Positions 1 to 15,472 of a DNA stretch of 64,000 bases are shown piece after piece. Within the stretch, counting starts at the first letter, position 1. Each line of letters opens with the position of its first letter. The notes beneath the pieces were generated by a model. It worked only from the letters and a program-made list of their open reading frames with translations, did not search any database and was not told the DNA's origin. Both the position numbers and the translations under genes were made by a program. Origin of the DNA: Acholeplasmataceae bacterium (GTDB taxonomy: Bacteria > Bacillota_I > Bacilli_A > Acholeplasmatales > Acholeplasmataceae); assembly GCA_963675245.1 (NCBI GenBank), contig OY775910.1:512001-576000 (forward strand). The letters are read 5' to 3'.

Positions 1-778
1 TATATTCAACAACATCATATTCAGCTGCGACATATCCACCAATGCTTGCGAGTGATTTAGAAAATGTCCCCATGATGATATCGACTTCTTTTTCTAGTCC
101 AAAGTATTCTGCAGTTCCTCTACCACCATGACCCAACACACCAAAACCGTGTGCATCATCTACCATCACACGCGCTTCATATTGTTTTGCCAGTCTAACA
201 ATTTCTGGAAGTTTCGCAATATCACCAGACATGGAGAAAACACCGTCAGTGACGATCAATTTCCCTTTATTTGGATCTGCACTGGCTAATCTTTGTTCTA
301 AATCAGACATATCAGAGTGATTATATCTGACAACTTCAGCATATGATAGTCTGTTTGCATCATAAATACTCGCGTGATTTTCTTTATCAGAAAAAATGAT
401 GTCGTTACGTCCTGCAATCGCAGAAATAATACCTAGATTAGATTGAAATCCAGTTGAAAAGATGGTGCAATCTTCTTTATTCAAAAACGCTGCGAGTTCT
501 TTCTCTAGCGTTTCATGTAGGTCAAGTGTACCATTTAAAAACCTAGACCCCGAAACACCTGTACCATATTTTTTGACTGCATCCACAGCAGCCTGAATCA
601 CTTCTGGATGAGATGTAAGTCCTAAATAATTATTAGAGCCTATCATGATTTCTCTATGACCTTCCATTTCCACGACGACATCTTGTTTTGATGTTAATGT
701 GTGAAAATAGGGATAATATCCTGATGCTTTCGCTTTCTTAGCTGCGTCATATGCATAGCACTTTTTAAATAAGTCCAT
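1..778 (-). CDS. PLP-dependent alpha-oxoamine synthase, serine palmitoyltransferase-like (3' end outside window)
   Basis: Not in the ORF track. Manual translation from ATG 778 (RBS GAGAGG): MDLFKKCYAYDAAKKAKASGYYPYF...GSNNYLGL...GSRFLNGT...NHASI...DGVFSMSGD...DDAHGFG...GTFSKS; open to the window edge. Confidence 0.85.
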   Translation of the reverse strand, partial: MDLFKKCYAYDAAKKAKASGYYPYFHTLTSKQDVVVEMEGHREIMIGSNNYLGLTSHPEVIQAAVDAVKKYGTGVSGSRFLNGTLDLHETLEKELAAFLNKEDCTIFSTGFQSNLGIISAIAGRNDIIFSDKENHASIYDANRLSYAEVVRYNHSDMSDLEQRLASADPNKGKLIVTDGVFSMSGDIAKLPEIVRLAKQYEARVMVDDAHGFGVLGHGGRGTAEYFGLEKEVDIIMGTFSKSLASIGGYVAAEYDVVEY

Positions 779-937
779 GTAAATCCTCTCTTTATATAAA
801 TACGTTTTATTCTATTATACTGTATTTTATTAAAATATGACCTTACACATTACCACTGTGTGGTAACAATAAATGTCTTTCAACGATTTATTGGCTTTAT
901 ATCAATATTTCATCTAAGAATAGTATCATTCAATAAA

Positions 938-970
938 TAAAAAAAGCTTGACAATTATGTCAAGCCTTTT
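938..970. terminator. Intrinsic terminator, bidirectional shape
   Basis: A-tract, GCTTGACA-ATTA-TGTCAAGC stem, T-tract; downstream of the vWA gene. Confidence 0.7.
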
Positions 971-989
971 CTTAATGTCACATTTATCA

Positions 990-2453
990 TTAATTAGCAA
1001 CAATTTCATATTGTATAATCGTCTTTAATAAATCGACAAATTCTGATTTATACATATCTTCGGTTACTGTGTTTAAATGTTCAATTCTTGAAAGTGCATT
1101 TGCCAGGTTAGCCTCATTCAAATATACACTTTCTCTTAAAATTAAAACCGTTTCAATTAGACTAGAAATAAATAATGCATCTTCACTTGGTTCTGATGTA
1201 ATTGCTGTTGGTAAAATTTCAGATACTTGTTCAAGTTGTGTATCATCAGACGTATCTGGACTTTTATATTTAATAGTTATATCTGCTAGTTTACTGTCAG
1301 AAATTGATTCACGTAATTTGATTTCAAAGACAACCGTAACCATCAAATCTGAACCTATCTCACCGGCATCTGTTTCTTCATTCGTGAACTCTTCTTCTGT
1401 TAATAAGCCGTGCTCATACCCTACTAAACGATATGATTCAACATTATCAGAATTAAATATAATTTGTGCTTTTGCATCTCTTGCTACAGTGTAAAGTGTC
1501 CCATTTATACCTTCCGAAAATGCACGATTAGCTTCTTGTACACTATCAATATACATATAGATACCATTACCATGTCTTGCTAGCGTCTCAAGATTGTCAT
1601 CTTGCAAATTACCACGACCAAAGCCAAATACCGAGAAATAAATACCAGACTGTCTTTTTTCTATGATAAATTCTTCGAGTTCTCCTCGTTCAACAATACC
1701 AAAATTAAAATCACCATCTGTGCATAATATGATACGGTTATTCCCCCCTTCAATGAAATGGTCAGTCGCTACGCTATAAGCACGCTCAATACCATCAGAT
1801 CCATATGTTGATCCAGATGCTTCTAATGCATTAATATAACTCATCATTTGATTACGATTTTCTCCTGATAAACCAGAAAATACTAATTTTGTCACAGAAG
1901 AATATGTAACAAGACTGATGGTATCACCATCTGATAAGTTTTCCACTAAAATATTTAAGGATTGTTTGACTAAATCCAGTTTTAGTGGATCATCCATTGA
2001 ACCAGATACATCAACTAAGAATACATAGTTATTACCAATAAGTAACTGTTCTGTTACTACTGCTTTCATGCCTACTATTAATAGTTTCGTCTCAGTATTC
2101 CAAGGTGTATCAATAACTTCAAAGGATGTACCTAACACATCATCACCGCTAGGATCATCGTAATCATATTTGAAATAATTAATAAATTCTTCAACACGAA
2201 GACTATTTCTATCAATGAATCCACCTTGATTAATAGTCGATCTAAAATTTGTATATGCAGCTGTGTTCACCGTTAAAGATAATTGTGATGTAGGGTTTTC
2301 TGATGTTAAGATAAAAGGATTCTCAACGATTCCTTGATAGGTATCCGTATAATTATAGTTAGCGTCTGGATCACTATTGTAATTTTCCATTGAAGAACAA
2401 GCCGTTAAAAAAGATAAACAACAAATCATAAATACAAATATCAATTTCTTCAT
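990..2453 (-). CDS. vWA-domain lipoprotein (YfbK/DUF3520 type)
   Basis: Lipobox LTAC; MIDAS motif DVSGS; CTDGDFNFG; RVEEFINYF and YRLVGYE/DAGEIG motifs of YfbK-like proteins. Confidence 0.85.
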   Translation of the reverse strand: MKKLIFVFMICCLSFLTACSSMENYNSDPDANYNYTDTYQGIVENPFILTSENPTSQLSLTVNTAAYTNFRSTINQGGFIDRNSLRVEEFINYFKYDYDDPSGDDVLGTSFEVIDTPWNTETKLLIVGMKAVVTEQLLIGNNYVFLVDVSGSMDDPLKLDLVKQSLNILVENLSDGDTISLVTYSSVTKLVFSGLSGENRNQMMSYINALEASGSTYGSDGIERAYSVATDHFIEGGNNRIILCTDGDFNFGIVERGELEEFIIEKRQSGIYFSVFGFGRGNLQDDNLETLARHGNGIYMYIDSVQEANRAFSEGINGTLYTVARDAKAQIIFNSDNVESYRLVGYEHGLLTEEEFTNEETDAGEIGSDLMVTVVFEIKLRESISDSKLADITIKYKSPDTSDDTQLEQVSEILPTAITSEPSEDALFISSLIETVLILRESVYLNEANLANALSRIEHLNTVTEDMYKSEFVDLLKTIIQYEIVAN

Positions 2454-2498
2454 TTTTCATTCCTCTTTTCTATTTTGACCATAGTATACTTCTCAATT

Positions 2499-2538
2499 TT
2501 GTCAAATATTTGAAGAACTTGTGACAATGTTGTGACAA
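2499..2538 (-). promoter_or_regulatory. OmpR/PhoB-type tandem boxes of the vWA gene promoter
   Basis: Minus strand TTGTCAC-N4-TTGTCAC-N4-TCTTCAA-N4-TTGACAA, then 10 nt, then -10 TATACT (2483-2488). Confidence 0.6.
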
Positions 2539-2609
2539 TTAACTTGGCGTAGTCATGTTATTATGATAATGTGATATCATAACATTAAGAAAACCAAGGG
2601 GTGGTAGAC

Positions 2610-3278
2610 GTGCGAATATTAATTGTTGAAGATGAAAAACACTTAAACGATTTATTACATGATTACATTGAAGAATCTTTTTCTGATGCCGAAATTGATC
2701 AAGTCTTTGATGGTATCACTGCTCTAGATGCAGTACATAATGCCCTATATGATTTGATCTTACTTGATGTTATGTTACCGCATATGAATGGATTTGATGT
2801 CTGCAGACATATTAGAGAAAATTCAGATGTTCCCATTATGATGCTCTCTGCATTAAGTGATGAAGAAAATCAATTAAAAGGATATAATCTCGGTATAGAT
2901 GATTACGTTACAAAACCTTACAGTCCTAAAATTGTGATTCAAAAGATATCTTCTGTCTTATCTCGATATGATCATAAATCGCCTAATCAATTAATGACTT
3001 ATGGCATCATATCGTATAATTTCGAGCAATACAAACTTACTATCAATCATCAACTTGTGTCTTTAAATAAAAAAGAGTGGGAATTATTTGTACTGTTTGT
3101 TCAACATATTGGTCGTGTTTTTTCAAGAGAAGAATTACTGAATCTAATTTGGGGATATGATTATTATGGTTTTGAAAGAACAGTCGATACCCATATCAAA
3201 CGTCTAAGACAAAAAATGGGTGACGCTTCATCCTACATTAAAACAGTTTACAAGTCTGGTTATAAATTCGAAAAATAA
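2610..3278 (+). CDS. OmpR-family response regulator
   Basis: ILIVEDE, LLDVMLP, DDYVTKPY receiver domain; winged helix RTVDTHIKRLR. Start moved to GTG 2610 after GGGGTGG RBS. Confidence 0.95.
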   Translation: MRILIVEDEKHLNDLLHDYIEESFSDAEIDQVFDGITALDAVHNALYDLILLDVMLPHMNGFDVCRHIRENSDVPIMMLSALSDEENQLKGYNLGIDDYVTKPYSPKIVIQKISSVLSRYDHKSPNQLMTYGIISYNFEQYKLTINHQLVSLNKKEWELFVLFVQHIGRVFSREELLNLIWGYDYYGFERTVDTHIKRLRQKMGDASSYIKTVYKSGYKFEK

Positions 3279-3299
3279 TCAATATAGGGAGGCGAACAT

Positions 3300-4703
3300 A
3301 TGAAAATAAACATTTTTTTCAAAACTTTTTTTGCATTATTTATTTCATTTTCGCTCGTTTTTATATTGAATTTATATATATCCTATCAACGCTTTTCACC
3401 TTTATATATCGAAGAAAATATTAGTCATGTAAAATCCATCATATTATCATCTGTTCCAGATATTTCAAATAGCACTCCTTTATCTGATACCGACCTTAGT
3501 CGTCTTTCAAGCGAAACAACGTTCTTACGTTATGATGGTACAATTACAGAAATGATTGGCCCAAATTATCTAGGTTTATCAGATATGCTTGATTTTGTTA
3601 TTGGCATTTATGATAGTGAAGATGCCATTGTTGAAGGTAATTTAATCTATCATACACTGAAGGTTGATGACATTTATCAAATCAACTATATTTATCAATT
3701 TGATGTCGGTGATTACTTAATTGTACAGACCCGTGTACAATCACTTGAAAATGTTGATGCAATACTTAATCGTATCAACTTTTCTCAATCAATCTATGCA
3801 TTCATCATCATCACTGCCATATCTATTATCATTTCATTGAATATTTCCAGACCCATCAAGAAAATTAACGATTATGCTAAAAAAATATCTAATTTAGATC
3901 TTCAAGGACAATTAAAACTGAATAGACGTGATGAATTTAAAGAGCTTGTCACTTCACTTAATGAAATGACATTCAATTTGAAGACAACTTATGTTAGTCT
4001 TCAAGAAGCTAATGATAAATTGTCTATAGATATTGATTTTGAAAAACAACAAGAAGAAAAAAGAAAGCAATTAATCATGATGATCAACCACGAAGTGAAA
4101 ACACCGCTAGCGGTGATGAAAGGCATGATTGAAGGTATGATTGATGGTGTTGGTAGATACAAGAACAAAGATAAGTATTTACGTGAACTTCTCACACAAA
4201 TTAATGTCATAGAAAGTATCACACAAGATTTAACATATTCATTACGACTTGAAGATAAAGTAAATAAAGAAACTGTTACGAATGCTACCTTGATAAATGA
4301 GCAATTGGATTCGCTAGAATTGTTTGCCCAACAACATCATGTTAAAATAAATAAAGATATTGATGCTTGCACTCTTTTGATTAATGAAGAATTATTTCTG
4401 ATTATGTGCTCTAATCTAATTAAAAATGCAATTATTTACAGTCAAGATAGGTTGATACATGTTTCTGGTAAGTCTATAGGTAATCAATATATTTTCACCG
4501 TTAAAAATAAAGGTGAAATTCCTGAATCAGAAATCCAAAAGCTTTTTGATCCCTTCTATCGTCTCAAACAAACTAAATCAAAAGGAACTGGTTTAGGTTT
4601 AAGCATTGTAAAACAAATTGCAGAATTATACAGTTATCCTTATAAGTTATTTAATGATAATGGAGAAGTTGTTGCAAAAGTACAAATTAAAATCAAAAAA
4701 TAG
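3300..4703 (+). CDS. Sensor histidine kinase (HAMP, HisKA, HATPase)
   Basis: Two TM segments, HAMP, H-box NHEVKTPL, N-box NLIKNA, G-box GTGLGL. Confidence 0.95.
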   Translation: MKINIFFKTFFALFISFSLVFILNLYISYQRFSPLYIEENISHVKSIILSSVPDISNSTPLSDTDLSRLSSETTFLRYDGTITEMIGPNYLGLSDMLDFVIGIYDSEDAIVEGNLIYHTLKVDDIYQINYIYQFDVGDYLIVQTRVQSLENVDAILNRINFSQSIYAFIIITAISIIISLNISRPIKKINDYAKKISNLDLQGQLKLNRRDEFKELVTSLNEMTFNLKTTYVSLQEANDKLSIDIDFEKQQEEKRKQLIMMINHEVKTPLAVMKGMIEGMIDGVGRYKNKDKYLRELLTQINVIESITQDLTYSLRLEDKVNKETVTNATLINEQLDSLELFAQQHHVKINKDIDACTLLINEELFLIMCSNLIKNAIIYSQDRLIHVSGKSIGNQYIFTVKNKGEIPESEIQKLFDPFYRLKQTKSKGTGLGLSIVKQIAELYSYPYKLFNDNGEVVAKVQIKIKK

Positions 4704-7355: not shown

Positions 7356-10300
7356 TTAATAATTAAATGGTTCTTCCGGTTCTTCTTGATACGTATTAGA
7401 ACGATCAAACTCAAATGAAGATTCCTTTAGAATACCCGTACCAGCAGGGATTAAACCACCGATAATGACGTTTTCTTTAAGACCATGAAGTTCATCTATT
7501 TTACCCTTAATCGCCGCGTCAGTCAAGATTCTTGTTGTTTCTTGGAATGATGCTGCTGATAAGAATGAATCAGATCTTAGTGATGCACGCGTGATACCTA
7601 ATAAGATAGGGCGACCAACCGCAGGTCTCTTACGTGCAAGGAATGCTTTCTTGTTTTCACGTTTGAATTCAGATACGGATACTTCAGTACCTGGTAATAA
7701 TTCTGTTTCACCTTCAGTGACGATGGTGATACGACGTAACATTTGTCTGATGATGAGCTCGATATGTTTATCAGAGATTTCAACACCTTGCGCACGATAA
7801 ACCTTTTGAACTTCTTCTAAGATATAGAGTTCAGCTGCTTCAGCAGAAACAACTCTTAAGAGTTCTTTAGGATTAATAGAACCAAGTGTTAGACGTTGAC
7901 CAGCTTTGACACTCGCATTCTTACGAACAAGAGATTCAACGTTTGGATCAATGGTGTACTTGTACTCTTTATCGTGTGCATCTGTGATCGTAACGATAGA
8001 TGAACCACCCCGTTGACGATCAATTGATTTAACCTTACCATCAACTTCTGATAGCACAGCTTTACCTTTAGGATTACGTGCTTCAAATAATTCTTGAATA
8101 CGTGGAAGACCTTGGGTAATATCTGATGCAGATGCCACCCCACCCGTGTGGAATGTACGCATGGTTAACTGTGTACCAGGTTCACCAATAGATTGCGCTG
8201 CAACAACCCCAACTGCTTCACCGACTTCAACAGGTGTGTTTGTAGCGAGGTTTCGACCGTAACATTTCGCGCAGACACCATTGTCTGAATTACAGGTTAA
8301 GTTTGATCTAATTTCAACTGCTTCAACACCGGCTTGAATCACTTGAGCACCAAGTTCATCAGTCACTAAACCGTTTCTTGGAACGATCATTTCTTTCGTC
8401 TTAGGATTAACAACGTCTTTCGCAACATAACGACCAACAATACGGTCATATAGTGGTACGATTTCTTTTGTTTCATCTTCTAAGATGGATCTCATGACAA
8501 CACCACGTTCAGTACCACAATCATCTTCAACAACGATGACATCTTGTGAAACGTCAACTAAACGACGTGTTAAGTATCCTGATTCAGCTGTTTTAAGCGC
8601 TGTATCGGTAGAACCTTTACGCGCACCGTGCGTTGAAATAAAGAATTCAGACACGGTTAAGCCTTCTCTAAATGACGCTTGGACAGGGACTTCAATAATA
8701 TCACCACGCGGGTTATTCATGAGTCCACGCATACCTGCTAATTGTGAGAAGTTTGAGGCATTACCACGGGCACCAGAGTCAGACATCATATAGATGTTGT
8801 TATCCGGATCAAATTCGCCCATTAAGCCAACTTGGATATCATCACGAGCTACTTGCCATTCTTTAATGACTAAGTCTTTACGTTCTTTATCTGTTAACCA
8901 ACCTTCATCGTACCATTCATTGACTTTAGCGATTTCTTCGTTTGCTTTTTCAATACGTTCATGTTTACCTGAGTAAACGTTAATATCAGCAAATGATACC
9001 GTTATACCAGCAACCGTTGAATATTTAAAGCCTAAGTCTTTTAATCTGTCAAGCATCTTTGATGTTTCAGAGATGTGTAGTTGCTTGAAGACTTGAGCAA
9101 TGATTTGTGATAAGAATTTCTTCTTGAATGGTGAAGGTACAGGTGTACTTTCTAAGAACTTTTTAGGATTCGTGCCTTTAGGCATGAAGTATGTATCAGG
9201 TGTCTTATTTTCTAAATTCGTGATCGTTGGTTCATTCAAATAAGGGAATGAAGAAGGTAGAATTCTGTTGAAAATAAGTTTACCAAATGTGGTGAGTAAA
9301 TATTTATCTCTTTGATCAGCAGTAAAGACTTGATTGATTGATTTAGGATCCACTAAAATTCTTGTATGTAAGCCGATTTCTTTGTGTTCAAAAGCCATTT
9401 CAGCCTCTGAAAAATCAAAGAAGAAATGTCCTTCATTTCTGTGTTTATGTGCATGTTCTTTTTGTTTCTCATCAGCACGATAACCACCAAATGGACGGTG
9501 AGCTTTTTCTTCAATCGTTAAGTAATAGTTACCTAAGACCATATCCTGTGATGGTGTAACAACTGGTTTACCATCTTTAGGGTTAAGAATATTGTTAGAG
9601 GCTAACATGAGCAATCTAGCTTCTGCTTGTGCTTCATTTGATAGTGGGACGTGAACAGCCATTTGGTCACCATCGAAGTCAGCGTTAAACGCTGGTGTAA
9701 CGAGTGGATGAAGGCGAATTGCTTTCCCATCAATTAATTTAGGTTCAAATGCTTGAATACCTAATCTGTGAAGCGTAGGTGCACGGTTAAGTAAGACTGG
9801 ATGTTCTTTAACAACCTTTTCTAAAGCTGCCCAAACATCATCATCCATACGGTCATACTTAGAGTTTGCATTCTTCTTAGAGTTTGCGTCTAAACCTAGT
9901 TGTTGTTGTAATTCTCTTAAGACGAATGGTTTGAAAAGAATAATAGCCATTTCACGTGGAATACCACATTGATACATTTCTAGGTCAGGACCAACGATAA
10001 TAACAGAACGACCAGAATAGTCAACACGTTTACCAAGTAAGTTTTGTCTGAAACGTCCTTGTTTACCACGTAACATATCAGATAATGATTTTAAGTGTCT
10101 ATTACGTTCAACTGCTGCTTTCTTACCACGTTTCGCGTTATCGAATAATGCGTCAACAGCTTCTTGTAACATACGTTTTTCATTCTTTGTGATGAGTCTT
10201 GGTGCCATTTGTTCTTTTTGTTTTTTAAGACGGTTATTACGGTTTAGAATACGACGGTATAAGTCATTTAAGTCAGTTGTTGCGAAACGACCACCATCTA

Positions 10301-11525
10301 AAGCAACCATTGGTCTTAAGTCTGGTGGAATGACTGGAATGACATCCATAACCATCCATTCAGGTTTGTTATCTGAGTTGTTGAATGATTCAACAACTTC
10401 TAAACGTTTGATAATGCGATCACGTTTTTGTTTAGAAGCAGTCTTTAATTTACGACGAAGAATACGAACTTCTTTATCAAGATCTAATTCTTGTAATAAT
10501 TTCTTAACCGCTTCAGCACCTGTGAGCGCTGTAAACTTACCCCAGTATTCTTCTGAAAGCATACTGAAATCTTGTTCTGATAAGATTTGTTTCTTTTGAA
10601 GTGGTGCTTGACCAGGATCTGTAACGATATATGATGCATGATAAACGACTTCTTCTAACGCTTTTGCTTTAATCCCCAAAAGGATGGCTAAGCGTGAAGG
10701 TGAGTTTTTTAAATACCATGTGTGAACAACAGGTGCTTCAAGTTCAATATGACCCATACGTTCACGGCGTACTTTAGATTCTGTAATTTCAATACCACAC
10801 TTTTGACAGATCTGACCCTTATTACCAGATTGTTTTTTACCGCAAGCACATTGATAATCCCTTGTAGGACCAAAGATGCGTTCGCAGAATAATCCGCCTG
10901 GTTCAGGTTTAGATGTTCTGTAGTTAATCGTTTCGTGTGTTAAGACTTCACCATAACTCCATTGTCTGATTTCATCAGGAGAAGCTAAGCGAATCTTAAA
11001 GTGTGAGAAGGTTCTTGAACCATAACCTTTACGAATAGGTTGAACATGACGATGAATACGTTCTGATAAATCCATGTCAAGTGCACTTTCTTGTGCGACA
11101 AGACCTTCAACTACTTCTTCGCCTTCAATGACGTGAACATGTGTGTGTTCTTTTAATGCGTCAAATCCGTAAAATTCTAAGAGATCGTTAATTTCTTTTC
11201 TTAATAGTTCATCACCTTCAAATAAGTGATATAAGGTGTGACGATCAAAATCGATGAATTCAGGTAAATCGTGGATGCTAGCTGTTTTTAAGATCGAGAT
11301 AGTTTCATCACTTAAGTTAAGATTATCCAAACTTCTTGGTAGGCTATAACGTCTTAAAACTGTTTTAATTTCATCAAATGATTCGCCAAGTAACATCTTC
11401 AACTCTTTTAGGTTAAAGGTGTTAAAGTCTTCTAGTTGTTCAATACCGGAGAGTTTTAAATGGTTTAAGGCTTCTTCTGAAAGTTTTAATGATTCAACGT
11501 GCAATGTGAGTTTTTCTTTTGCCAT
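7356..11525 (-). CDS. rpoC: RNA polymerase beta' subunit with ~165-aa N-terminal extension
   Basis: NADFDGD active site, [23 protein letters not shown]. Confidence 0.99.
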
Positions 11526-14500
11526 TAGCGGAACCCTCCTTTCGTAAATCTCGATGGATTGTTATTAACAAGTGATTTTTCTGCTTCATTTTCGCCAGTC
11601 GTTGCGTCAATTAATTCAACGTGCAATCCTAATGCTTGGAATTCTCTTGTTAAGACCCTAAATGATTCTGGGATGCCGGCTTGTGGAATTGGTTTACCAT
11701 GCGTAATGGCACTATAAACTTTATTTCTACCGAGCATATCATCAGATTTAACCGTTAACATTTCTTGTAAGGTATGTGCTGCACCGTAAGCATAGAGTGC
11801 CCAAACTTCCATTTCTCCGAAACGTTGACCACCGTTTTGGGCTTTACCACCCATCGGTTGTTGTGTAACGAGTGTATATGGACCAACAGCACGCGCATGA
11901 AGTTTATCGTCAACCATGTGTGACAGTTTAATCATGTACATGACACCAACAGAGATTCTGTTCTCATATGGTTCACCGGTACGTCCATCATATAATGTAC
12001 GTTTACCATCTGGTTCAAGACCAGCTTCACTCATAATCGATAATAAGTCTTCATCACTAACCCCATCAAATACTGGTGTCGCGATTTTAATGCCTAATTT
12101 TTTCGCAGCCATACCTAAATGAATTTCTAGGATCTGACCGATATTCATACGTGATGGTACCCCAAGTGGGTTTAACATGATGTCAATAGGTGTCCCATCT
12201 TCCATGTAAGGCATATCTTCACGTGGGAGAATTTTTGAAATAACCCCTTTATTACCGTGACGACCAGCCATCTTGTCACCTTCAGAAATCTTACGTTTCT
12301 TAGCAACATAGACACGGATGAATTCATTGACGCCGCTTTGGAGTTGATCACCATTCTTCTTAGAAAAATACTGAACAGATTGAACAACACCGCCACCACC
12401 GTGTGGGACGCGCATGGATGAATCACGGTATTCGCGTGATTTTTCACCGATGACTGCGTGAATAAGTTTTTCAGATGGTGTTGGTTCAAAGACACCCTTA
12501 GGTGTAATCTTACCAACTAAAATATCATTTTCTTTCACTTCAGAACCTGGAATAATAATACCGCGTTCATCAAGATTCTTAACGGCTTCATAACCAGCAT
12601 TTGGTACTTCACGTGTGATTTCTTCACGACCAGAGCCGCTCTTTAATTCACGTGTTTCAACTTCATATTCATCGATATGAATCGATGTATAAACGTCTTC
12701 TTTAACAAGGTCTTCACACATGATGACAGCATCTTCATAGTTATAACCTTCCCATGTCATGAACGCAACAGTAACATTTCTACCAAGTGCTAGTTCACCT
12801 TTGTTTGTTGAAGGACCATCTGCTAAGACATCTCCAGTATCAACGAACTCACCTGATTTAACAAGTGGTTTTTGAAGCACTAATGTATCTTGGTTAGAAC
12901 GCATAAAGTTTGTTAATTCATAAGTGACTGTATCACCCATACCATAATCTCTTAAGACTTTTGCACTCTCAAATGAGAAGCCTTTCTTAGGATCGTATAA
13001 AACATTGTTGCCGACGACAACACGTTCAGTTGGTTCTGGTGTGATTTCAATTCTCTTACCATCAGCATATGTGACATAGCCTGATACGTCAGATACAATA
13101 ACTGATCCAGAGTCTTTTGCTGCTCGGTATTCAATACCTGTACCAACGATAGGTGAATCTGTTTTAAGTAGTGGCACAGCCTGACGTTGCATGTTCGCAC
13201 CCATGAGTGCACGAGACGCGTCATCGTGTTCCAAGAATGGAATCGTTGATGTTGCGACCGATACGATTTGCTTTGGACTGACGTCCATAAAAGTAACTTC
13301 ATCAAGGTCAAACATAGATGTTTCACCACGATGACGACCGATGACTTTATCTTCAGTGATTTCACCATTTTCTGCCAAGTGAGTCGCAGCAGACGCGATG
13401 ATTTCATGATATTCTTCATCAGCAGTTAAGTATTTAAATTCTTGTGTAACCACAGGTCTATCTCCAGATTTATCAACAATCAAGTATGGTGTTTGAATAA
13501 AACCGTATTGATCCACTTTACCATAAGTAGCAAGTGAACTGATTAACCCGATAGATGGCCCTTCTGGTGTTTCAATTGGACAAATACGTCCGTAGTGAGA
13601 GTTATGTACGTCACGGACTTCAACGCCTGCACGGTCTCTTGCAAGACCACCGGTACCTAAAGCAGATACACGACGTTTTTGAGTTAACTCAGCTAGTGGG
13701 TTAATTTGATCCATGAATTGTGATAACTGTGAACTACCGAAGAATGTCTTAATCGCACCAGCAAGTGGCGTCATATTAATGATGTTTGACGGTGTCGCAT
13801 CCGCGAACGTCGTCGTTGACATCTTGTCTTTAATATTCTTTTCAGCTCTTGCAAGACCAATTCTAAATTGGTTCTTTAAGAGTTCACCAATAAGTCTTAA
13901 ACGACGGTTACCTAAATGGTCGATATCATCTGTCGCACCAAGACCTTCATATAAGTTTAAGTAGTAAGAGATGGATGCAACCACATCAGATAGCGTAATA
14001 TGTTCACGCATTTCACGTTGGTCGTTACCTAATACTCTAACCGTATAAATCTTATCTGTTTCTTCGTCCTTAACAGTGACGTCAATCGCTTCAACTAAAA
14101 CACCAGAACGTTCTTTTTCTTTCTCATGAAGGTCTCTACCATCAAAGAAATACTTAATGACTTTTTCATCTAACGCATTACGATTTCTACGTAAAACATT
14201 TAATGATTCTTCATTGATTTCTGTGTTCTTTGAAATAAGGATTTCGCCTGTTTTTAAGTTAACGATGTTTTCTTTCGCATATAATGCATCGCCACCATCA
14301 GGAAGATAAGTTGCTAAAATTTCTGCAGGTGGTTCGTTTTGAAGTGAATCTTCTTTAGAGATAACTTCAACGCGTAATGCATCGCGATGATCTTTTAAGA
14401 CATTGATGACGTCTTCTGTAATTTTTGTCTTTTCAGCAACAATCACTTGACCCGTTTTAGGATCAACGATATCTGTTGCTGTATATGTGCCTTCAATACG

Positions 14501-15352
14501 TGAAAGTACATCTAATTTTTTATTGAATTTATAACGACCAACAGCCGCTAAATCATAACGACGTTTTTCGAATAAACGCATTCTGACGAATTCACGTGCA
14601 GCATCTGCTGGCACTTTTTCGCCTTGTCTTAATTTTGAATATAAATCGATGATTGCTTCATCAGCATTTTTTGTATCATCTTTTTCAAAGGTAGAATCAA
14701 TATAGTTTGATTTACCAAAAATTTCATAAATATCTTTTTTCTTTTGAATACCTAAAGCACGCATTAAAGTTGTTAGAGGTACTTTTTTACTTCTGTCAAG
14801 CTTCGCATAGACAATACGTTTAGAACCAAGTTCATATTCTAACCATGCACCACGTGTTGGGATGATTTGCGCAGAATATTTAATCTGATTCATCTTCTTG
14901 TCCATTTCGCTCATGTAATAAGCGCCAGACGAACGAATAATCTGGGATACGACCACACGTTCAGCACCGTTAATGACAAAAGTCCCCGACGGTGTCATAA
15001 AGGGGATTTCACTCATTAAGATGACGTTCTCTCTAACTTCTCCGGTAATCGCGTTTTCGAGTTTAACTTTTGCAGAAAGCTGCTTAGCATAGTTAACATC
15101 TCTTAACTTCGATTCATTAATACCAAATTTTGGTTCGGTAAGGTAATGTTCTTCAAAATATAACTTTAAATCGCCGTTGTGACCTTCAATTGGCGAAATA
15201 TCTTGCAACAAACCCTTGATGCCCTCATCGATAAACCATTGGAATGATTTTGTTTGTATCTCGATCAGGTTCGGCAAATCAATGTCATAACGCATTCTTG
15301 AATAATTTCTACGTTCCGCTTTCTTGCCGTATTTCACATTCCGATATCCCAT
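11525..15352 (-). CDS. rpoB: RNA polymerase beta subunit
   Basis: [30 protein letters not shown]. Start moved to MGYRNV after AGGAG; TAATG coupling to rpoC. Confidence 0.99.
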
Positions 15353-15472
15353 GTTCCACACTCCTATCATTTCTAGAAAATCACGTCACATAACCGATTA
15401 AATTATATATTAAAACCATTATTATGCATTTTAATATATTATCACAAAGTATGCAACAAGTCAATCACTTTT

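Follow-up and report, generated by a model that had tools for sequence, protein, structure and literature searches.

Bacterial RNA polymerase (RNAP) is not known to carry C-terminal domains of the alpha subunit (alpha-CTDs) anywhere but on its two alpha subunits. Here we describe an rpoC gene from an Acholeplasmataceae bacterium, in a window of 64,000 nucleotides (contig OY775910.1, positions 512,001 to 576,000), whose product, the beta' subunit, begins with an extension of two tandem alpha-CTD-like domains followed by an acidic linker. The extension resembles the alpha-CTD of RpoA in fold, in sequence homology, and in consisting of small helical domains of the double helix-hairpin-helix (HhH) type on a flexible RNAP tether. 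It differs in that its domains are tandem, acidic, placed at the beta' N-terminus, and devoid of the DNA-contact arginine and the G-x-K-S motif, while a normal alpha-CTD is also present. In the whole clade that has the extension, each enzyme would carry four alpha-CTD-type domains, two of them repurposed, acidic, and without DNA-contact residues.

Several described systems share features with this arrangement. Escherichia coli NusA also has two tandem acidic HhH-type domains (AR1-AR2), and by analogy the extension would likewise place such a pair on the transcription machinery near the RNA exit without DNA binding; the beta' repeats, however, are nearer to the alpha-CTD than to any NusA chain among the matches listed, are part of beta', and occur in a genome whose own NusA lacks such repeats. 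Tandem arrays of up to 11 stretches matching the Pfam alpha-CTD family (RNA_pol_A_CTD, PF03118), often with sigma-70 region 4, helicase, or helix-turn-helix (HTH) domains, are found in uncharacterised bacterial and phage proteins; those are free-standing, whereas the extension is fused to an essential core subunit. Lineage-specific insertions such as beta'i6/SI3 and beta i4 of E. coli are, like the extension, clade-restricted surface domains accreted on a conserved core, but those described in PMC2939025 are internal BBM2/sandwich-barrel modules, whereas the extension is terminal and of the alpha-CTD type. Phage Xp10 protein P7 shows that the beta' N-terminus of Xanthomonas RNAP is exposed and that its occupant abuts sigma region 4 and the flap tip helix, where it can affect both initiation and termination; P7 is a separate protein on a 10-residue peptide, whereas the extension consists of two folded domains of the host enzyme itself (PMC3985653). 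Our search of the literature on Acholeplasma and phytoplasma RNAP and on lineage-specific insertions, which did not cover the Lane and Darst insertion catalogue, found no description of the extension.

The features of the locus, in window coordinates, are the following.

7356..11525, minus strand: rpoC (RNA polymerase beta'), 1389 amino acids including the extension; open reading frame with translation, Pfam Rpb1 domains 1-5 from residue 171, and rpoC_TIGR
11010..11525, minus strand: N-terminal extension, residues 1-172; upstream of the conserved beta' start and conserved in 25 aligned relatives
11337..11516, minus strand: repeat 1, alpha-CTD-like domain, residues 4-63; PF03118 at 26.4 bits, 1z3e_B at Z 9.7
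11151..11336, minus strand: repeat 2, alpha-CTD-like domain, residues 64-125; hhalign match to repeat 1, profile match to 1doq_A, 1z3e_B at Z 8.7
11031..11150, minus strand: variable acidic linker, residues 126-165; low model confidence at 127-150, dN/dS 0.38, median charge -7
11010..11030, minus strand: clade-specific conserved segment KGYGSRT, residues 166-172, running into the beta' core; from alignments
11535..11541, minus strand: Shine-Dalgarno sequence AAGGAGG, 9 nucleotides 5' of the rpoC ATG and within the end of rpoB
11525..11527, minus strand: TAA stop codon of rpoB, which shares one base with the rpoC ATG (TAATG)

On the minus strand of the window rpoB is followed by rpoC, whose frame contains no in-frame TGA. 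The initial annotation had placed the conserved RpoC start at about residue 173, and this is where conserved beta' sequence begins; Pfam RNA_pol_Rpb1_1 sets in at residue 171, and the NCBIfam model rpoC_TIGR (TIGR02386) covers residues 176-1367, scoring 1707.5 bits where 963.5 are required. None of Pfam Rpb1 domains 1-5 is missing, which makes the protein a full match to bacterial beta', and its first ~172 residues are covered by no RpoC model. The segment singled out in that annotation, 11028-11525, corresponds to residues 1-166, and the repeats quoted there to residues 10-62 and 66-121. Within the KGYGSRT segment, K166, Y168, G169, and S170 show little or no variation in the alignments.

An N-terminal extension of this kind might be an annotation artefact, with translation actually starting near the conserved beta' N-terminus and the upstream frame open by chance. 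More than 130 genomes, however, share this open frame with a conserved protein sequence, its predicted folded domains are confident, and the Shine-Dalgarno sequence and the coupled start codon lie at Met1. The MAKEKLTL N-terminus and the start position right behind rpoB are conserved across genera, and the sole downstream ATG before the core lies 27 codons ahead of the conserved motif and is missing in several relatives. Selection tells the same way: in the comparison with the closest relative, the only pair for which the ratio is informative (synonymous divergence, dS, being mostly saturated in more distant pairs), the ratio of nonsynonymous to synonymous divergence (dN/dS) was 0.037 in repeat 1 and 0.020 over the first ~490 residues of the core, and reached 0.38 in the linker. 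For repeat 2 dN was 0.09 and dS was saturated. We therefore regard an artefact as scarcely credible; from these signals the extension looks to be translated from Met1, and the repeats appear to be under strong purifying selection. The linker, by comparison, varies between 3 and 52 residues among relatives, and since it is only ~3 residues long in one 0.9-Mb genome, it would seem to be dispensable.

We examined the origin of the two repeats by comparing the isolated extension with sequence and structure databases. Its residues 3-58 passed the gathering threshold of PF03118 (26.4 bits against 23.8; E = 5.7e-6), while the same model gave no match to repeat 2. When the extension was used as a query against the sequences of the Protein Data Bank (PDB), all eight matches at an E value of 10 or less were alpha subunits, the best being that of Thermus thermophilus (1doq_A; E = 0.002). 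We aligned the extension with those of 24 other genomes (alignment A1, 25 sequences); 20 of these 25 matched PF03118 at an E value of 0.1 or less, with a best value of 3.4e-8. Profiles of the two repeats cut from A1 matched each other with an hhalign probability of 96.3% (E = 1.5e-9, 30% identity over 56 columns), which indicates, at the level of sequence, that the two domains are the product of an old internal duplication. The profile of repeat 2 (alignment A4) in turn gave an ungapped, full-length match to 1doq_A (E = 8.3e-4), and alpha subunits made up all of its ten best PDB matches. In small genomes the A1 profile sometimes also finds the organism's own RpoA CTD, at E values of ~5e-4 (for example, G010:C1:570356-570598, inside rpoA).

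Predicted structures led to the same assignment. In an AlphaFold2 model of residues 1-172 built with A1, the extension forms two helical domains, each consisting of a short helix and four further helices, with a predicted local distance difference test score (pLDDT) of 81-90 for residues 10-125 (81-87 in repeat 1) and below 50 for residues 127-150; the linker is predicted to be disordered save for a short conserved helix at ~154-160. In a Foldseek search with this model nearly all top rows were alpha subunit chains, at target TM scores of ~0.6-0.78 and probabilities mostly of 0.85-1.0. Against isolated CTD chains the root mean square deviation (rmsd) was 1.6-2.2 Å over ~60 columns. The E values of this search were only ~0.1, which is to be expected of a domain of 60 residues. 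A structure search independent of Foldseek placed the Bacillus subtilis alpha-CTD (1z3e_B) first for repeat 1 (Z 9.7, rmsd 1.6 Å, 63 of 67 residues). Within the whole-extension model, repeat 2 matched the alpha-CTD 5vi8_T best (Z 5.3). Folded alone, it reached a pLDDT of 88.5 and matched 1z3e_B at Z 8.7 (rmsd 2.1 Å, 61 of 67 residues), with the top five rows all alpha-CTDs, and in Foldseek it had a best E value of 0.017 at a probability of 1.00. RAD51 N-terminal domains, thumbs of Y-family polymerases, and SAM domains, all of the helix-hairpin-helix/SAM-like kind, ranked below the alpha-CTDs at Z 4-6, and no NusA chain was among the matches listed in the sequence and structure searches of either repeat. 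The nearest clusters in the ESM Atlas were Bacillota proteins of 150-300 amino acids named "alpha chain C-terminal domain-containing" (PF03118), with a best score of 0.90. The proposal of the initial annotation that two tandem domains with the alpha-CTD/HhH fold stand at the RpoC N-terminus and are followed by an acidic linker is thus upheld: for repeat 1 by PF03118, for repeat 2 by hhalign and 1doq_A, for the fold by the structure comparisons, and for the linker by its charge.

We next considered whether the repeats could act as extra DNA-binding alpha-CTDs in cis, which would bind upstream A/T-rich (UP-like) DNA and add promoter affinity. Their fold and homology, a tether that would lie near the -35 region and upstream DNA if the described geometry of the beta' N-terminus (PMC3985653) applies here, and the A/T-rich genome (GC content of 0.31-0.39 across the window) would all suit such a role. 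The residues at the DNA interface do not. We placed the DNA-contact positions of the alpha-CTD, which we take to be R265, N268, G296, K298, and S299 in E. coli numbering, by alignment to the genome's own RpoA CTD and to 1doq. The arginine of the SVR motif, equivalent to R265, is replaced by E18 in repeat 1 and by E74 in repeat 2, and among the 25 aligned relatives it is never arginine in either repeat: the position is E or D in 21, K in 2, S in 1, and Q in 1 for repeat 1, and E or D in 24 and S in 1 for repeat 2. The G-x-K-S hairpin is shortened to the point of loss in repeat 1 and reads D-E-L-L in repeat 2, where D105, at the position of G296, is conserved in 24 of 25 relatives. Net charge is negative in 24 of 25 relatives for repeat 1 (median -3, range -4 to 0) and in all 25 for repeat 2 (median -8, range -11 to -2). 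The replacement of basic DNA-contact residues by acidic ones, noted in the initial annotation from this one sequence, therefore extends to nearly all relatives. The extension also stands at the beta' N-terminus, not at the alpha C-terminus where a functional RpoA alpha-CTD is found. Because of the loss of contact residues and the acidic charge, alpha-CTD-style DNA binding by either repeat appears very unlikely.

The genome's own alpha subunit had been named as a point to check. RpoA (329 amino acids) retains a normal CTD (76.3 bits) with the LSVRLFNSL and LGRKS motifs, a charge of +2, and an isoelectric point of 9.2. As a separate observation, the genuine alpha-CTD has lost the SVR arginine and G-x-K-S in two divergent genera of the same family (L115 of G018 and L121 of G016), both of which keep the beta' extension.

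To define the range of the extension, the A1 profile was searched against 251 genomes of the order (families f1 to f5). The extension was found in 111 of 115 genomes of f1 and 20 of 22 of f4, and in none of the 113 genomes of f2 (0/106), f3 (0/5), and f5 (0/2), whose RpoC begins 9 residues ahead of the I-R/G-L-A-S-P-E-E motif. Two of the four misses in f1 belong to one genus (g8), and the other two are fragmented genomes that are 88-90% complete; in one of the g8 genomes (G016) the frame does show a divergent two-repeat extension. In the genus g2, whose genomes are of phytoplasma size (0.4-0.9 Mb), all 35 genomes have the extension, as do Alteracholeplasma palmae, Acholeplasma hippikon, and Haploplasma modicum. 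A second search with the same profile, over 400 genomes of the class, found it in 30 of 30 genomes of f1 and 7 of 7 of f4, and in none of 362 genomes from 28 other families. The suggestion that the extension is lineage-wide therefore holds within two families of one order but not for the Mollicutes as a whole. Like other accretions on the RNAP core, it occurs throughout its clade and is absent from relatives, and the core is unchanged. Precomputed Pfam lists report PF03118 on just 3 of 69 RpoC clusters of homologues.

A tree of RpoA and SigA from the 27 genomes in which both proteins were parsed (635 columns, no outgroup) separated f1, f4, and a group of f2, f3, and f5. On this unrooted tree the distribution may reflect one gain, or one gain and one loss. 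The clade includes uncultivable, plant-pathogenic phytoplasmas as well as cultivable Acholeplasma species, and that genomes of ~0.5 Mb keep the module speaks for its importance. It provides a defined, testable handle on the organisation of transcription in a lineage with very few regulators. In one 77%-complete assembly we also saw a second, different 5' part of rpoC with its own two-repeat extension, on a 2.6-kb contig (L030; G012:C16:1-2589), which probably comes from a second strain in the bin and not from a paralogue.

The acidic character of the extension invites a second explanation, that it acts as a nucleic-acid mimic or electrostatic gate. The repeats and linker would then occupy basic nucleic-acid-binding surfaces (sigma region 4, the zinc finger, or the DNA-binding face of the genuine alpha-CTDs) in the vicinity of the RNA exit and of the upstream DNA, and suppress nonspecific binding of DNA and RNA in an A/T-rich genome, by analogy with AR2 of E. 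coli NusA, sigma region 1.1, or the acidic tail of delta. NusA AR2 binds the face of the alpha-CTD that recognises UP elements; PDB 2jzb, which is among the listed structural matches, presumably relates to this contact. The charges agree with a mimic, since nearly all relatives have acidic repeats and an acidic linker, both repeats carry a conserved Glu or Asp in place of the DNA-contact arginine, and the genuine alpha-CTD is basic.

A further point in favor of a mimic came from RpoA. All 29 extension-bearing genomes examined have a C-terminal tail after the RpoA CTD, mostly of 12-16 residues but up to ~45, which is acidic in 28 and typically ends in DDEDKE or DDDNE, whereas in all 12 extension-lacking genomes of the same order RpoA ends 18 residues past G-x-K-S, without a tail. 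The 3' end of the present genome's own rpoA (L081 2209-2487; G000:C1:804875-805861) encodes such a tail, for example ...NSSSKDSNVFADDIDKE. Given the split of the RpoA and SigA tree into f1, f4, and the group of f2, f3, and f5, with the root unknown, the co-occurrence of tail and extension within the order would amount to one or two evolutionary events, and we treat it as a lead only. Long acidic alpha tails are also seen next to a short RpoC start that lacks the extension, in 3 of the 24 genomes parsed from other families of the class (G305 of f14, and G291 and G277 of f21), one of them ending in DDEDDKE; a further genome, G263, could not be parsed and is not among the 24. With the tail present in two extension-lacking families, we rejected it as a strict marker of a binding partner.

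Other observations sit less well with a mimic. The linker, its most mimic-like part, is the dispensable part, repeat 1 is only mildly acidic, and all 41 relatives in which accessory subunits were compared already possess a delta subunit, whose tail is very acidic. The folded domains, at a dN/dS of ~0.04, suggest selection for a specific surface over bulk charge. On balance we rank the mimic second and consider it possible, though on the unlikely side.

The module is not confined to RpoC. An A1 search of 1.84 billion representative proteins gave 151 matches at an E value of 1e-3 or less, RpoC fragments among them, and 30 of the proteins were scanned for domains. The N-terminus of P0074 (663 amino acids) is 75% identical over 174 amino acids to the RpoC extension of one genus and then unrelated; this may reflect true gene capture or a chimeric assembly. 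P0077 (1115 amino acids) carries the module at residues 193-338 (50% identical) and Sigma70_r4 at 525-564, P0092 and P0118 (~1030 amino acids) combine an N-terminal module with Sigma70_r4, and P0078, P0082 (with two modules), and P0102 likewise carry it outside RpoC. By eye, the start of P0077 resembles sigma-A region 1.1, and two module proteins have such starts. Sigma70_r4 was found in 6 of the 30 scanned proteins, three of them close paralogues, and a seventh has GerE or Sigma70_r4_2; counting proteins with the module itself, sigma-70 region 4 occurs in three (P0077, P0092, and P0118) and in one genomic open reading frame (ORF), in genome G139. The copying of the module into other proteins argues for a specific binding function, and sigma region 4, with which it is repeatedly combined, becomes a candidate partner.

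Beyond these proteins, weaker matches in the same search belong to a broad class of uncharacterised proteins with alpha-CTD-like arrays, in many cases together with sigma region 4. Members such as P0093, P0108, P0114, and P0132, among others, have 3-11 tandem PF03118 stretches combined with Sigma70_r4, an SNF2 or DEAD helicase, HTH_3 or HTH_31, and Clp_N or S1 domains.

Where on the enzyme the module would act can be estimated from its attachment point. In one 0.9-Mb genome a mere ~12 residues lie between repeat 2 and the first beta' strand, which obliges the domains to stay near the beta' N-terminus. Beta' residues 1-10 of E. coli and Xanthomonas RNAP are flexible and accessible, beside the zipper and the zinc finger, and a protein bound there was modeled next to sigma region 4 and the flap tip helix (PMC3985653). 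If this geometry applies, the acidic alpha-CTD-like pair would have the beta flap, sigma region 4, and the RNA exit as its surroundings; in initiation its neighbors would be sigma region 4 and the -35 region, and in elongation the RNA exit and the NusA site. A later cryo-electron microscopy study reportedly examined P7-NusA-TEC (transcription elongation complex). The conserved acidic faces of the repeats could then hold a basic partner at this corner, with sigma region 4, the genuine basic alpha-CTDs, the NusA N-terminal domain, or another factor as candidates, and could thereby affect initiation or early elongation. The present genome encodes a standard set of factors, with sigma-A (422 amino acids), a NusA of 356 amino acids without acidic repeats, delta (198 amino acids) with a very acidic tail, and omega. 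We favor the view that the extension is a non-DNA-binding protein-docking module at the corner of flap, sigma region 4, and RNA exit; it is the most likely of the readings considered, held with no more than moderate confidence, and is ranked ahead of the electrostatic or nucleic-acid mimic, with DNA binding unlikely.

Several points weigh against a docking role. No partner was identified among the factors, in the gene-loss comparison, or in the comparison of RpoA tails, where the acidic tails of G305, G291, and G277 stand without an extension. Nor is there a lost accessory subunit for the extension to replace, as omega (PF01192) was found in 40 of 41 relatives and the delta N-domain in 41 of 41, with or without the extension; the single omega miss is a 77%-complete genome. 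Complementary gene loss was rejected on this equal occurrence of both subunits. The location is carried over from proteobacterial RNAP and may not transfer, acidic charge by itself would suit a mimic equally well, and the argument from fusions to sigma region 4 draws on few metagenomic proteins. A complex prediction of the alpha-CTD with its tail (alignment A2, 22 rows) and extension residues 1-128 (alignment A3, 22 rows) gave an ipSAE of 0.00 in both runs, against a mark of 0.32; made without controls, it speaks neither for nor against binding. The PDB entry 9a4w, an "RPOA-RPOC" model, proved irrelevant, as it represents the canonical alpha-beta' contact of B. subtilis.

The failure to find a partner would also fit a structural or near-neutral extension, one that aids folding or assembly of beta', or is merely tolerated, without any regulatory partner. 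Since extension and alpha tail go back to one or two events on the tree, shared descent could explain part of their persistence. Against this, purifying selection on the repeats is near that on the core, the extension is kept in every genome of the 0.4-0.9-Mb genus, the module has been copied independently into other proteins, and sister families assemble RNAP without it. We consider a purely structural or tolerated extension improbable, and retain docking as the preferred reading.

A bolder variant of the docking proposal takes in the sigma-like proteins. The beta' extension might be a docking hub on Acholeplasmataceae and phytoplasma RNAP, whose binder, a host factor or a polymerase-hijacking phage protein, is engaged by the ~1000-1100-amino-acid sigma-like proteins through decoy copies of the module. 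We regard this as a long shot; if true, it would link an appendage of the core enzyme to phage defence.

Sigma-like paralogues were found in 1 of 132 matching surveyed genomes, G139. There, a frame of at least 1116 amino acids, open at the contig start, carries module copies and Sigma70_r4 (L122, C1:1-9000; 2-3352, plus strand). Directly downstream, and overlapped at their start by this ORF, lie three genes with matches to PDC-M33A, B, and C, a candidate defence system in PADLOC (E = 6e-156, 1e-60, and 1e-43). These PDC-M33-like genes adjoin one gene for a type II restriction enzyme and another for a C-5 DNA methylase. A 420-amino-acid frame on another contig of the same genome (L123, C2; 4899-6158, plus strand) has two more module copies, runs off the contig end, and may be the same gene. 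A contig search with an alignment of the sigma-like paralogues (A5) yielded no extra contexts, 61 of 62 loci matching only generic sigma region 4; one locus, L160, matched the C-terminal part.

Finally, we considered the genetic code under which these genes are read. Translated with code 4, the rpoB frame continues upstream through a TGA at codon 2 (window positions 15352-15391). This is the lone in-frame TGA, and it lies in the over-long frame 5' of the likely start; the true rpoB start is probably the ATG at codon 8 or 14 of the extended frame. All 13 tryptophan codons of rpoB and rpoC are TGG. Because tryptophan is encoded by TGG only and TGA occurs only upstream of the likely rpoB start, code 4 was rejected in favor of the standard code 11, in which TGA is a stop codon.

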